The position numbers and the translations under genes are program-made. Shown here piece after piece: positions 32,196 through 41,378 of a stretch of DNA of 64,000 bases. Positions within the stretch are counted from its first letter, which is position 1. Each line of letters starts with the position of its first letter. Under the pieces are notes generated by a model, which was given only the letters and a program-made list of their open reading frames with translations, had not been told where the DNA came from and did no database searches. This stretch comes from Deinococcales bacterium. Its GTDB lineage: Bacteria > Deinococcota > Deinococci > Deinococcales > JAAFIG01. The stretch is taken from assembly GCA_043778225.1 (NCBI GenBank), contig JAYWGM010000092.1:4842-68841 (forward strand). Direction: 5' to 3'.

Positions 32196-34787
32196 ATGAG
32201 TTTTGACACCCACCCTAAAATTGCGCTGCATGGTTTAACCTTTGATGATGTGCTGCTGCTGCCAGCCTACAGCGAAGTTACCCCAGATGTGGTCAGCACC
32301 CGCACCCGTTTAAGCCGCAATATCTGGCTAAATTTGCCACTGGTCTCGAGTGCCATGGATACGGTTACGGAAACCAGTATGGCAATTGCCATGGCTCGTA
32401 CTGGCGGCATTGGTATCCTGCATAAAAACATGAGCCTAGAAGCCCAAGCCGATATGGTGCGGAAAGTCAAACGCTCCGAATCTGGAATGATTGTAGACCC
32501 AATCACCTTGCCGCCAAGTGCGTTGCTCGAGGATGCCGAAAACCTAATGCGCGAGTACCGTATTTCCGGTGTGCCGATTGTGGATGATTCTGGGTTATTA
32601 CTTGGGATTGTCACCAACCGAGATTTGCGTTTTGAAGACGATTTAACCCAGCGCGTAGACAGCATCATGACTCGAGAAGATTTAATAACTGTTCCACAAG
32701 GCACAACCCTAGAAAATGCTCGAGACATTTTTAAGCTCCATAAAATCGAGAAACTCTTGGTCGTGGACTCGAGTTACCGCTTGACCGGTTTAATCACGAT
32801 TAAAGATTTGCAAAAACGCATGGATTTCCCCAATGCCGCCAAAGATAACCTTGGGCGATTGTTGGTTGGGGCGGCAGTTGGTATCTCTAAGGATTTTGAA
32901 GCTCGAGCCAAAGCCCTGGTCGAGGCTGGCGTGGATGTGCTGGTCTTGGATAGCGCTCATGGTCACAGTAAAAACATTCTCGAGGGTGTGAAGTACCTTA
33001 AAAGCACCTTCCCAAAAATAGATGTGATTGCTGGCAATGTCGCAACGGCGGCTGGGGCAGAAGCACTGGTTGAAGCTGGTGTGGACGCGGTAAAGACCGG
33101 GATTGGACCCGGCTGTTTTGCGGCGGGTACTCGGGTTTTGATGGCAAATGGAACATATAAAAACATTGAGGATGTCCAAATTGGCGAACGGGTCATCAAT
33201 ATGCACGGCTTACCCGTAACTGTGGTCAATGCTTGGTGTACTGGCACTCGGGAAGTCATGAGCTTACGTCACACCCAATGGTATGGTACGACTCGAGCCA
33301 CACCAGACCATCGTTTTTGGGTTGGTGATATGAGTACCGTGGCAAGTAACGCGCTCAGCAGTCGAGGGTACGCTAAAATTCTCGAGCAACCCACACGTTT
33401 TGGCATAAGCAAATATAAATGGAAGCACCTTGAAGATTCTTCAAAAGATGCGATGCTCCTACCGCGTAGGATTTCATTTGAATTGCCTTCGGAGTTCAAA
33501 ATTGATTTGCACCAGTACGCGGTTCGTCATGAGCAACTTGAAGCCAGATACATCACCACCATGCACTCGAGTTATGACTTAGGGTATATTTTTGGTACTT
33601 TCCTAGGTGATGGTCATGCTTTTTTGAATTCAAATGGTAAAAGCGAAATTGGTCGGGCGGACTGGTATTTTGGCATTGAAGAACACCACATTGCCGATAA
33701 ATTACTGGGTGCATTAGAACGTGTGTCTGGAGTTCGTGCCATCAAAAAACCAGACGGCAACATCATCCGAATTTACTTTCATTCCTTACCTTGGGCAAGA
33801 TTACTGGCACAATTTGGCAAACGCTACGATAAACACTTGCCAGAAGCCTTCTGGTGTAATAACCTCGAGTATCAATCGGGGCTTTTTGATGGTTTAGTGG
33901 ATTCAGATGGTTTTATTGGCAACGATGACCGAATTCAATTTAAGAACACTTCAAGTCAACTGGTCGAATTATTTTCGGTGCTGTGCCAACAAGTCCAAGG
34001 TTCTTTTCCTAATCTCGAGACTGAAGAAGCCCATGTCGGCGGACTCAAAGGAGTAATCCTCGAGAATTGCCATGAATCCTACCGAGCCAGATTGAATAAA
34101 TCCTTTGCTAAACGCCTGACCGAACAGTACCAAATCGTCAAGAATCTCGAGACTCACCCACCTTTTGAAGCTGTCCCTGTCTACGATTTAGAAGTGGATT
34201 GCCCAACCCACAGTTTTATTGCCAACAATGCGATTGTCCATAATTCAATTTGCACCACCAGAGTCGTGACTGGCGTGGGTGTGCCGCAAATCAGCGCCAT
34301 TATGGAATGCGTCTCGAGTGCTGAAGATGTGCCAATTATTGCCGATGGTGGCATCAAACAAACTGGCGATATTCCTAAAGCGATTGCGGCAGGTGCAAGC
34401 AGCGTCATGATTGGCGGACTTTTTGCGGGTACAGACGAAGCCCCCGGCGAAACGATTCTGCGCGAAGGGCGGAAATACAAAACCTACCGAGGTATGGGCA
34501 GCGCTGGGGCAATGAGTGCTGGCAGTTCTGACAGGTACTTCCAATCTGGCTCGAGGAAATTTGTCCCAGAAGGTATCGAAGGCATTGTGCCGTATAAGGG
34601 AACAGTCTCGGATGTGATTTATCAGATGGTGGGTGGCTTAAAAGCGGCGATGGGTTATACGGGTAGCCCGACCCTCGAGCATCTGCGTTTACACGCCCAA
34701 TTTACGCGCATTACGATGGCTGGGCTAATAGAATCGCATCCGCATGATGTGACCATCACCCAAGAAGCCCCGAATTACTCGAGATGA
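32196..34787 (+). CDS. guaB: IMP dehydrogenase interrupted by an in-frame intein
   Basis: '[15 protein letters not shown]', a CBS pair, 'GIGPG|..intein..|[15 protein letters not shown]' and '[11 protein letters not shown]'. The exteins sum to 486 aa. TAGACT lies 7 nt before ATG 32196. Confidence 0.95.
33114..34244 (+). mobile_element. 377-aa intein with a LAGLIDADG homing endonuclease domain
   Basis: Begins '[13 protein letters not shown]' (Cys1). Block B is 'TPDHRF'. The LAGLIDADG blocks are '[14 protein letters not shown]' and '[14 protein letters not shown]'. It ends '[22 protein letters not shown]' followed by the +1 Ser. Confidence 0.9.
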
Positions 34788-35242
34788 TCATGCAGATTTC
34801 ACCCATCACTCGAGTTGACACCGATTTAGAAGCATTGGCTAAGAAACAAGGCTTGCCTGATCGGGCAGTCTTTTATCTGGCTTTGGCTCGAGTGGCGGTT
34901 CTTGTCTTGTCTTTCCCTCGAGTGGCAAGGCTTTTGGGGCGTTCTGCGGTGGAAACACCTGTTCTATCTTTGGAAAATAAGGAAGCTGCCCTTGTGGTGG
35001 CGTGGGCAGTCCAAAGCAGTGCAAAAAGTGTGGTCTGGCGCTGTGAGTGTCTCGAGCAAGCCTTGGCGACCAAATGGCTGTTAAAACAACGAAAAATCTC
35101 GAGTACCTTGTATTTTGGAACTTTTTTTAATGGCGTGACGCTCGAGGCTCATGCTTGGGTACGGGCTGGTAATCTGATTGTGGTTGGAGAACGAGGGTAT
35201 CAGCAGTTTACCGTGATTGGAATTTATGGAGATCAACAATGA
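34784..35242 (+). CDS. lasso peptide biosynthesis B2 protein (transglutaminase-like leader peptidase)
   Basis: '[18 protein letters not shown]' (Cys) and '[17 protein letters not shown]' (His) are the lasso B2 signature. The start overlaps the guaB stop. Confidence 0.85.
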
Positions 35243-40428: not shown

Positions 40429-41378
40429 CAAAAGATTACTTATTATTTGGCTGGCGAGTACGTGCCAATATCAGATTGCCTTGTTTTGAATTATTCAAGA
40501 CGGGTGAACCAGACTGCTGCATCAATTTTTTACCTCCGCTCGAGTCACCTCAACTCTCCCTGCCAAATTTTGCGACCTTACTCGAAACCGATGGCGTACA
40601 GTCGGTTTGGCGGATAGACCAAGACACTTGGCGCATAGAAATGTTTAATCAAATCACCAATCAGTGGTTACAACTCAATTTTCGTCAATCTGGCAAAAAT
40701 ATCGAAGTAATCTACAGCCAAAACACGATTGTCGAAAACATCCTACCAATGCTGCTCACAAGGTTATTTACAACAATTTTATGGAATTCTGGACTCGTCT
40801 GCTTACACGGAGGTGTGGTCAATACCGAACAAGGTGGCGTTCTGCTGCTCGGGGATTCTGGCGATGGTAAATCCAGTACCTTAACCGCACTTTGGCAACA
40901 AGGTTGTACTGTGTTGAGCGATGATATTGCGGTTCTCGAGCCAAACGAACCTTGTCTGGTACATATTGGACCAAGGTATTTGCGCTTACACGACGACTCT
41001 GCCTCTGTACTGGGCATCAATCCAGAATCCCTACCAACCATATTTTTACCCGCCGAAACGATTGGCAATAAGCGTTACATCAACCTCGAACATCAAGTGT
41101 GTCCTGTCTCGGTGGCAGTGCAACAAATTTTTATTCTTGCTGGACGAGAAAATATCGAACAAACCAAATTGACTCGCCTTGCACCGTACATGGCTGTGGC
41201 AGAATTACTAAAATACCAATTTCGAGGTCAGCAACTCGAGCCACAAATTTACCCGCAACTCCTAAAAGTAGCTGTTGCCTTAGCGCACCAATGCCATGTC
41301 TACTTGGTTCACACGCCAGCTAACCTTGAGAAATTACCTGAAATAGCCCAAACGATACTTGGGCAGCCACTTGTATAA
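40425..41378 (+). CDS. HPr kinase-like protein (lasso peptide kinase family)
   Basis: 'GGVLLLGDSGDGKSSTLTAL' is an HprK-type P-loop. There is an ATGA start/stop overlap with the preceding gene. ATG 40425 is preferred to the ORF-track start at 40350. Confidence 0.7.
   Translation: MTKDYLLFGWRVRANIRLPCFELFKTGEPDCCINFLPPLESPQLSLPNFATLLETDGVQSVWRIDQDTWRIEMFNQITNQWLQLNFRQSGKNIEVIYSQNTIVENILPMLLTRLFTTILWNSGLVCLHGGVVNTEQGGVLLLGDSGDGKSSTLTALWQQGCTVLSDDIAVLEPNEPCLVHIGPRYLRLHDDSASVLGINPESLPTIFLPAETIGNKRYINLEHQVCPVSVAVQQIFILAGRENIEQTKLTRLAPYMAVAELLKYQFRGQQLEPQIYPQLLKVAVALAHQCHVYLVHTPANLEKLPEIAQTILGQPLV

Follow-up and report, generated by a model that had tools for sequence, protein, structure and literature searches.

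Lasso peptides are valued as ultra-stable scaffolds and as antibiotics, and only a handful of reactions that tailor them are known. The locus described here raises the question of what a lasso pathway makes when its core genes are followed by genes for a methyltransferase, a glycosyltransferase-like protein and a kinase. It lies in a 64,000-nucleotide stretch of DNA from a Deinococcales bacterium (assembly GCA_043778225.1, contig JAYWGM010000092.1, positions 4,842 to 68,841), here called the window, whose own coordinates are used throughout. An earlier note, made from the sequence alone, had read positions 34784-41378 as a lasso peptide cluster with three tailoring genes. Seven co-directional open reading frames (ORFs) indeed lie on the forward strand where that note had placed them, and hidden Markov model (HMM) searches, predicted structures and comparative genomics upheld the assignment of each:

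34784..35242, + strand: B2, lasso leader peptidase, 152 amino acids (aa); an alternative ATG at 34790 would give 150 aa
35239..35523, + strand: B1, stand-alone PqqD-type recognition element (RRE) for peptides that are made on ribosomes and modified after translation (RiPPs), 94 aa
35524..37446, + strand: C, Asn-synthetase-like lasso cyclase, 640 aa
37502..37666, + strand: A, precursor peptide of 54 aa, MEKIQSEQVEMQTEVLTRKVWVAPQLETIEFLDTS/L/AINPGGVFDAIYSASRSF; no family match in HMM searches
37775..38908, + strand: MT, PqqD/RRE domain and TylF-family O-methyltransferase; alternative start at 37829
38911..40428, + strand: X, 505 aa, GT-B-fold glycosyltransferase-like domain and helical TPR-like C-terminal domain
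40425..41378, + strand: K, predicted P-loop kinase with the fold of HprK and phosphoenolpyruvate carboxykinase (PEPCK), 317 aa

A lasso peptide cluster with three probable tailoring enzymes

We consider it very likely that the locus is a working gene cluster whose product is a tailored lasso peptide, and that it encodes enzymes of three classes (kinase, glycosyltransferase-like protein and methyltransferase). It belongs to a well-known class of natural products, to which it adds a new and conserved tailoring module. The three proteins that mark a lasso cluster, a Cys protease, a PqqD-type RRE and an Asn-synthetase-like cyclase, are all encoded. B2 matched the lasso B2 family NF033537 (lasso_biosyn_B2) with 85 bits (cut-off 33) and Transglut_core3 (PF13471) with E = 1e-19, and B1 matched PqqD (PF05402; E = 2e-18, 67 bits, cut-off 23) and the lasso family NF033536 (lasso_PqqD_Bac; E = 2e-17). 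C contains the Pfam domains Asn_synthase and GATase_7, and its best NCBIfam match is the lasso isopeptide cyclase NF033535 (E = 1e-119), with 401 bits, under that model's cut-off of 525. The genes are as tightly packed as had been described. B2/B1 and X/K share ATGA overlaps, the start codon of C directly adjoins the B1 stop, and MT and X are 2 bp apart. The X/K overlap makes ATG 40425 (317 aa) the likely start of K, rather than TTG 40350.

Conservation of the tailoring module in five phyla

Word-indexed homologue searches returned only 13 proteins for X and 11 for K, so an exhaustive profile search and a genome scan were needed to see the family. Around five homologues of the PqqD-TylF fusion, the genes for MT, an X-like protein (~520 aa) and an HprK-like kinase were found in identical order, and in four of these five neighbourhoods lasso B1, B2 and C genes were present together with a small ORF ahead of MT. 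Scanning one genome per GTDB species with an alignment of X yielded 80 loci, which were annotated with HMMs built from the family. The MT-X-K trio occurs in 19 distinct loci, in Deinococcota, Gemmatimonadota, Acidobacteriota, Pseudomonadota and Actinomycetota:

Deinococcales: the window, L004, L010, L012
Longimicrobium and other Gemmatimonadota: L006, L013, L015, L016
Acidobacteriota: L008
Bradyrhizobium metagenome-assembled genome (MAG): L014
Cultured Undibacterium strains: L017, L020
Pigmentiphaga humi: L005
Thermoleophilaceae and Solirubrobacteraceae: L021-L027

A cyclase gene is present in 18 of the 19 loci. The order C-A-MT-X-K forms a conserved backbone, around which the order and orientation of B1 and B2 vary (B1-B2, or a divergent B pair). 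The order B2-B1-C-A, which had been called unusual, is present in the window but is only the Deinococcales variant of this backbone. Flanking genes differ from locus to locus around the constant C-A-MT-X-K genes, suggesting that the block travels and persists as a unit. In many relatives an NTP_transf_5 nucleotidyltransferase gene of the paeninodin/pseudomycoidin type directly follows K, sometimes fused to GT2; the window has no such gene.

Comparison with the Deinococcales locus L010 shows that B1, C, A, MT, X and K are under purifying selection, with ratios of nonsynonymous to synonymous substitution rates (dN/dS) of 0.12-0.21 at a dS of 0.6-1.0 (0.12 for C and 0.15 for A). Among the loci, the proteins C, MT, X and K vary together in pairwise identity (r = 0.95-0.97), a pattern that fits functional coupling and also shared vertical descent.

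The arrangement differs in P. humi and Undibacterium. The locus of P. humi (L005/L018, UWPJ01000025.1) comprises PqqD, MT, two tandem precursor genes, X, K and a second class-I methyltransferase. In Undibacterium sp. Ji67W and SXout11W (L017, L020), MT lies on the opposite strand and is followed by B1-A-X-K-C. This Undibacterium cluster abuts a second, paeninodin-like lasso cluster (cyclase, HprK-like kinase, sulfotransferase, B1, B2 and an ATP-binding cassette (ABC) exporter), and B2 and the exporter may be shared between the two. The family thus lies in groups that have been little mined (Deinococcota, Gemmatimonadota, Acidobacteriota, Thermoleophilia), and it is open to experiment because strains of Undibacterium and Pigmentiphaga that carry it are in culture.

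The methyltransferase carries its own recognition domain

The N-terminus of MT is a PqqD/RRE domain (~aa 38-91; PF05402, E = 2e-10, 41 bits, cut-off 23), which is followed by a TylF domain (aa 105-376; PF05711, E = 1e-82, 278 bits, cut-off 23). Residues 176-376 align end to end with the O-methyltransferases 4cdz and 5i10 of the PDB (E = 8e-63), the former of which we take to be the spinosyn rhamnosyl 4'-O-methyltransferase SpnH, and also with MycF (mycinamicin III 3''-O-methyltransferase; E = 3e-56) and NovP (E = 3e-54). Enzymes of the TylF/MycF/NovP family methylate sugar hydroxyls by means of a bound divalent metal, and the acidic metal-site motifs are kept in MT, where LRLDADLY and VDDY correspond to LRLDGDLY and IDDY in 4cdz. 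From this family membership, and from the pairing of an X-like protein with a TylF enzyme in the outgroup locus L029 (see below), we infer that the substrate of MT is probably a sugar hydroxyl. The fusion of an RRE to a methyltransferase of the sugar type suggests that methylation would precede removal of the leader and act on a sugar that the peptide already carries.

The PqqD-TylF fusion itself is widespread: a search at E <= 1e-5 gave 2237 homologues, and among the 120 listed almost every one has both domains. Against the PqqD equivalog model of the HPr-rel-A system (TIGR04352/TIGR04353) the RRE of MT scored 19 bits, below the cut-off of 35. B1 and the N-terminus of MT share only 21% identity, which rules out a recent duplication as the source of the two RREs; the MT domain appears to be old and separate from B1.

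X has the fold of a GT-B glycosyltransferase

When all PDB chains were searched with a sequence profile of X, no match was significant (best E = 0.65), leaving the predicted fold as the informative evidence. The AlphaFold2 model (predicted local distance difference test (pLDDT) 89, predicted template modelling score 0.88) shows a GT-B fold of two Rossmann domains at ~aa 1-340 and an all-helical, TPR-like region at ~aa 341-505. Its best Foldseek matches are retaining GT4 enzymes, namely PimB', BshA, PimA, MshA and the methylmannose-polysaccharide mannosyltransferase (E = 8e-10 to 1e-8), with target-normalised template modelling scores of ~0.64 for PimB', BshA and PimA.

At E <= 1e-30 the exhaustive profile search with X retrieved 377 representatives, and of the top 150 only ~45 match X along its full length, the others sharing the GT-B part alone. 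These partial relatives make up ~59 outgroup loci (L028-L086; Deltaproteobacteria, Scalindua, Myxococcales) that contain no RiPP genes, and in 20 of the ~59 a flagellin gene lies no more than 8 kb away, often as the direct neighbour. In L029 (7953-14898) the order is an X-like GT-B and TPR protein, which passes Pfam Glyco_trans_1_2 (37 bits), a stand-alone TylF methyltransferase, a GT2-TPR protein and flagellin; a B12/radical-SAM gene lies 5' of the X-like gene. The outgroup loci are probably uncharacterised flagellin glycosylation islands.

Eight charged residues of X (R77, E87, D90, D122, H172, R250, D252 and R318) are invariant in 14 lasso-linked and 53 outgroup proteins, which argues that X and the outgroup have kept the same catalytic site. 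The fold and these relationships suggest that X is a peptide O-glycosyltransferase descended from protein glycosylation enzymes of the flagellin type. Two full-length homologues of X, in L019 (289-1851, at a contig end) and L024 (1022-2479), with 32-34% identity, have no detectable MT or K nearby.

K resembles the kinases of other lasso clusters

K matched Hpr_kinase_C (PF07475; E = 1e-5) and TIGR04352 (HprK_rel_A, of the HPr-rel-A system; E = 5e-8, 32 bits, cut-off 200) below the thresholds of both models, and its best PDB sequence match is HprK/P (E = 1e-4). Its AlphaFold2 model (pLDDT 88.8) retrieved ATP-dependent PEP carboxykinases (E = 6e-8) and the catalytic domains of HprK/P (E = 7e-6 to 1e-4) in Foldseek, which points to the P-loop kinase fold common to PEPCK and HprK/P.

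K carries the motif of paeninodin-type HprK-like kinases (a His, the P-loop Lys-Ser and an Asp-Asp pair), and H128, G146, G148, K149, S150, D166 and D167 are invariant in 17 kinases of the family. Mutagenesis of the Bradymonas enzyme BsfK has shown this H...GxGKS...DD motif to be needed for lasso kinase function; BsfK phosphorylates Ser3 of its linear precursor and is stimulated by B1 (PMC10368454). PadeK, ThcoK, SyanK and PsmK phosphorylate the leader-bearing precursor on a Ser near or at the C-terminus (PMC9266682). Because the characterised kinases act on a C-terminal Ser or, in BsfK, on Ser3, the conserved terminal Ser/Thr of the core, described next, is by analogy the most likely target of K.

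Conserved features of the precursor peptides

The precursor family comprises 18 non-identical sequences, that of the window included. All 18 share the leader motif W/F-x-x-P-x-h-E and a leader Thr fixed at P+10. The ring Asp lies at Thr+10 or Thr+11, and an invariant Tyr follows it by 3-4 residues. The tail after the Tyr has 2-6 residues, of which the last or penultimate is Ser or Thr in 18/18. The invariant Tyr and the terminal Ser/Thr thus offer two conserved hydroxyl positions for two group-transfer enzymes. In the Deinococcales locus L010 (2285-2671), two tandem precursor genes encode distinct cores, …MAVTPGATFDGFYSANRSF and …VSASPGATYDFFMYANRSA, as compared to one precursor gene in the window.

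Lasso rings generally have 7-9 residues, closed on an Asp or Glu at core position 7-9, with a Thr at position -2 and a small residue at core position 1. The canonical pattern of Thr(-2), residue 1 and Asp9 fits 10 of the 18 precursors, those of Gemmatimonadota, most Thermoleophilia and P. humi (the count takes in L005a of P. humi, counted manually). In the window peptide (…FLDTSLAINPGGVFDAIYSASRSF) the Asp is at Thr+11, as it is in the other Deinococcales and in L008, L014, L017, L020 and L027. A conserved Thr placed 11 residues before the ring Asp leaves two candidate cores. Either the core is an 18-mer, AINPGGVFD…, with Thr(-3), Ala1, Asp9 and a 9-residue ring, or it is a 19-mer with Thr(-2), Leu1, Asp10 and a 10-residue ring; the threaded 18-mer that had been predicted is therefore one of two options. 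The calculated mass of the lasso core would be 1852.911 Da for the 18-mer and 1965.995 Da for the 19-mer. A penultimate Ile is a documented exception to the Thr(-2) rule (PMC10368454), and metanodin has Asn at core position 1 (PMC12670498).

A proposed pathway and its alternatives

These observations suggest a pathway in which K phosphorylates the peptide, X glycosylates it, MT methylates the sugar, and B1, B2 and C cut and cyclise the product; we give this specific chemistry a little better than an even chance. The 54-aa precursor would be made from its own promoter, and its leader (W-x-x-P-x-L-E ... Thr) would be bound by B1 and by the RRE of MT. With the leader still on, K would phosphorylate the terminal or penultimate Ser/Thr, in the window the Ser of ...RSF. 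X, whose TPR-like domain may bind the peptide, would transfer a sugar from a housekeeping nucleoside diphosphate (NDP)-sugar to the invariant Tyr, to a Ser/Thr hydroxyl or, as in pseudomycoidin, to the phosphate. The RRE-tethered MT would O-methylate a hydroxyl of the sugar added by X, after which B1 and B2 would remove the leader and C would join the N-terminal amine to the Asp. This would yield a threaded peptide, 18-19 residues long, with a phosphate and/or a methylated sugar on its short tail, where bulky decorations could help to lock the thread. As no dedicated exporter is encoded, the peptide may leave the cell by a generic system or act inside it.

Several observations weigh against this pathway. 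X falls below threshold for Pfam Glyco_trans_1_2 (E = 6e-4, 20 bits, cut-off 25), and the E-x7-E motif of GT4 enzymes is unclear in it, the first Glu position being Ser or Gly in the alignment and only E257 being kept. GT-B folds are also found in enzymes other than glycosyltransferases, such as the epimerases among its Foldseek matches, and the cluster contains no genes for NDP-sugar biosynthesis. The Thr-Asp spacing of 11 departs from the rule for Thr(-2) and rings of 7-9 residues, making the cleavage site or the ring size uncertain. The likeness of K to paeninodin-type kinases, which had been pointed out before, holds for fold and motif, but the Ser of the window core is penultimate, unlike the C-terminal Ser of the substrates of those kinases. 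In P. humi, B2 and C were not found within +/-10 kb of the trio; its core enzymes may be encoded elsewhere in the genome, or the pathway may be a linear variant.

The doubts about X, the missing sugar-nucleotide genes and the RRE of MT, which would suit an enzyme whose direct substrate is a peptide with its leader, are also what one would see if MT methylated the peptide itself (at the Tyr hydroxyl, a phosphate installed by K or a carboxylate) and X, instead of glycosylating, served as a scaffold or chaperone or transferred some other group. We regard this as rather unlikely, since the nearest kin of the MT catalytic domain are methyltransferases of sugar hydroxyls, whose metal-binding acidic motifs it retains, an X-like protein is paired with a stand-alone TylF enzyme in a flagellin/glycosyltransferase locus without RiPP genes, and the invariance of the eight charged residues across 67 lasso-linked and outgroup proteins argues for catalysis by X. 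The P. humi locus, with its PqqD, MT, two precursors, X and K, raises a different possibility, that MT-X-K and an RRE form an autonomous tailoring system for linear RiPPs that is merely co-located with lasso genes, like the LPP clusters of Bacillota; such clusters, with an HprK-like kinase and an RRE, often adjoin paeninodin-like lasso clusters (PMC13381572). This seems improbable to us, as the window has a single precursor gene placed between C and MT, nearly every locus with the trio has a cyclase, and the precursors, those of Pigmentiphaga included, keep the lasso hallmarks of a Thr-x cleavage context and an Asp 9-10 residues further on. The co-diversification of C, MT, X and K also speaks against it, although shared vertical descent could yield the same. 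It is hardly credible that the cluster is a silent or decaying remnant without a product. It does lack exporter, regulator and immunity genes and sits directly 3' of guaB without an obvious promoter of its own, but all ORFs are intact, the catalytic motifs are kept, dN/dS is 0.12-0.21 at a dS of ~0.6-1.0, and the hexamer CTCGAG is found at near-native density (see below).

A more specific history may be proposed tentatively, as a possibility that we would not yet call probable. In it, MT-X-K is a protein-glycosylation module (a flagellin-type GT-B/TPR protein with a TylF enzyme) that was captured by a RiPP pathway, in which MT gained its RRE and a peptide kinase joined, giving an O-methyl-glycosyl, possibly phospho-linked, decoration that is absent from the lasso modifications of the two reviews cited below; in Deinococcales and some others this would be combined with a 10-residue ring or a cut three residues past the Thr. 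The kinship with flagellin loci suggests how RiPP pathways recruit protein-modification machinery. The family would add up to three reactions of the lasso tail, phosphorylation, glycosylation and sugar methylation, and its sugar O-methyltransferase, guided by the leader, and its peptide glycosyltransferase of the GT-B/TPR kind would be new enzyme tools. It would also test the rules on ring size and Thr(-2), one of which would be broken if either the 10-residue ring or the Thr(-3) cut is true.

Relation to known systems

Among the closest known systems are the paeninodin type (PadeK, ThcoK, SyanK) and the Bradymonas BsfK system, which share with the cluster a split B1/B2, an Asn-synthetase-like cyclase, an HprK-like kinase with H...GxGKS...DD, a core whose C-terminal end has a conserved Ser, and the expectation that the kinase, helped by B1, works on the precursor before the leader is removed. 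The window differs from the paeninodin type in its penultimate Ser and in having neither ABC exporter nor nucleotidyltransferase. In the family described here, moreover, a GT-B/TPR protein and an RRE-TylF methyltransferase always stand beside the kinase, and K is only remotely HprK-like, as its TIGR04352 score shows. Pseudomycoidin, from Bacillus pseudomycoides, resembles the cluster in combining a kinase with a sugar-adding activity on the tail, and many relatives of the cluster encode an NTP_transf_5 protein of the PsmN type. There, a nucleotidyltransferase homologue, which the window lacks, is credited with adding the hexose in place of any GT-B enzyme, and a methyltransferase plays no part.

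A glycosyltransferase is also encoded in the lasso cluster of the davasins, the Ser-polyglycosylated peptides of Streptomyces davaonensis. This enzyme, IgtG, acts on the mature lasso and was reported to be the sole glycosyltransferase of its kind to co-occur with lasso genes (PMC11912497). The davasin system has no kinase or methyltransferase partner, and the RRE-fused MT of our cluster points instead to tailoring while the leader is attached.

For MT the likeness to TylF, MycF and NovP covers the whole catalytic domain, but those enzymes are stand-alone proteins that act on glycosylated macrolides and aminocoumarins, whereas MT is fused to a PqqD-type RRE within a RiPP cluster. O-methylation of lasso peptides by S-adenosylmethionine-dependent enzymes, as proposed for MT, is performed by the lassomycin-type StspM and by PIMT-type enzymes (cellulonodin-2, lihuanodin). 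These belong to other methyltransferase families, neither TylF nor RRE-fused, and their targets are carboxylates, the C-terminal ester and an Asp side chain (PMC9266682). The uncharacterised GT-B/TPR proteins of flagellin loci resemble X in their homologous GT-B part (HMM E = 1e-50 to 1e-66), the invariant charged residues, a C-terminal TPR-like region and an occasional TylF partner. They differ from it in having no RiPP genes nearby, in C-terminal domains that cannot be aligned and in their presumed substrate, flagellin.

The reviewed modifications of lasso peptides (PMC9266682, of 2022, and a review of June 2026) comprise disulfides, C-terminal methyl esters, phosphorylation, phospho-glycosylation (pseudomycoidin), Ser polyglycosylation (davasins), acetylation, acylation, citrulline, epimerisation, hydroxylation, aspartimide, biaryl links, Trp halogenation, Trp prenylation, dehydroalanine and a second isopeptide bond. 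None of those in the two reviews involves a TylF-type methyltransferase, a GT-B/TPR enzyme or the combination of either with a kinase. No characterised cluster with the kinase, glycosyltransferase-like and methyltransferase trio was found in the full-text literature that could be searched, which leaves out most subscription journals; the earlier view that the combination is new to such clusters stood to that extent. The trio is not peculiar to this genome, since at least five phyla have it.

Genomic context and composition

The features that surround the cluster genes are as follows:

37448-37477, + strand: promoter-like hexamers TTGCCG-18-TATAAT, 5' of the precursor gene
37490-37495, + strand: AGGAGA Shine-Dalgarno sequence, 5' of the precursor ATG at 37502
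37725..37754, + strand: short hairpin with a U7 run after it, in the interval from the precursor gene to MT; a doubtful candidate attenuator
41386..42531, + strand: acyl-CoA dehydrogenase, 7 bp 3' of K; short-chain acyl-CoA dehydrogenase type in Pfam and NCBIfam

The precursor had been credited with its own promoter and Shine-Dalgarno sequence, and both the hexamers and the AGGAGA are present. Of 6 promoter-like sites detected in 34000-43000, the sigma-70-like TTGCCG-18-TATAAT scores highest (10/12 matches), but such sites are no commoner in this interval than in shuffled sequences, and a precursor-specific promoter is plausible on these motifs. The hairpin 3' of the precursor gene was considered as a terminator or attenuator and found unsupported, as the predicted folding of the region is no more stable than that of shuffled sequences (z = -0.35).

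At its 5' end the cluster follows guaB (IMP dehydrogenase; 32097-34787, + strand), whose stop codon is overlapped by the start of B2. The guaB gene is split by an intein, with a Pfam Hom_end_hint (homing-endonuclease/Hint) domain between the two IMP dehydrogenase halves. No ABC_tran or ABC_membrane gene was found within +/-10 kb of the cluster, in line with the earlier observation that an ABC exporter is missing. At the 3' end, the acyl-CoA dehydrogenase was rejected as an eighth cluster gene, because the window and L010, its close relative, are the only loci where it follows K on the same strand; in the Acidobacteriota locus L008 it is adjacent to the cluster on the opposite strand. With 95% amino acid identity to L010 and a dN/dS of 0.06 it is far more conserved than the cluster genes, and is probably a flanking housekeeping gene.

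The window has the same sequence as a metagenome scaffold in ENA (BUSI22-1, ERZ28574018). By the scan with the X alignment, the nearest genome relatives of the window are Deinococcales MAGs. The G+C content of the cluster is lower than that of the window, as had been suspected (45.5% versus 48.4%), but this is the 12th percentile of windows of the same size and not a significant deviation. CTCGAG is by far the most frequent hexamer of the window, with 403 copies (6.3/kb) as compared to ~16 expected for a random hexamer, and its density in the cluster (5.0/kb) is near-native, in agreement with the first reading. In the Deinococcales MAG loci L004, L010 and L012 the density is 5-6/kb, and in loci of other phyla it is at most 1.5/kb. 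The percentile and the near-native CTCGAG density rule out low G+C as a sign of recent transfer, and the cluster bears no compositional mark of recent arrival. CTCGAG is a lineage-wide, highly iterated palindrome that recalls the cyanobacterial HIP1.

Elsewhere in the window, a three-gene operon without Pfam matches occupies 42532-45646 on the reverse strand. Its first product, of 458 aa, has a long low-complexity region rich in Asn, Gly and Gln, with NGQ repeats. At 56001-58000 the G+C content falls to 36-37% (window mean 48%), and this segment may be a foreign island.

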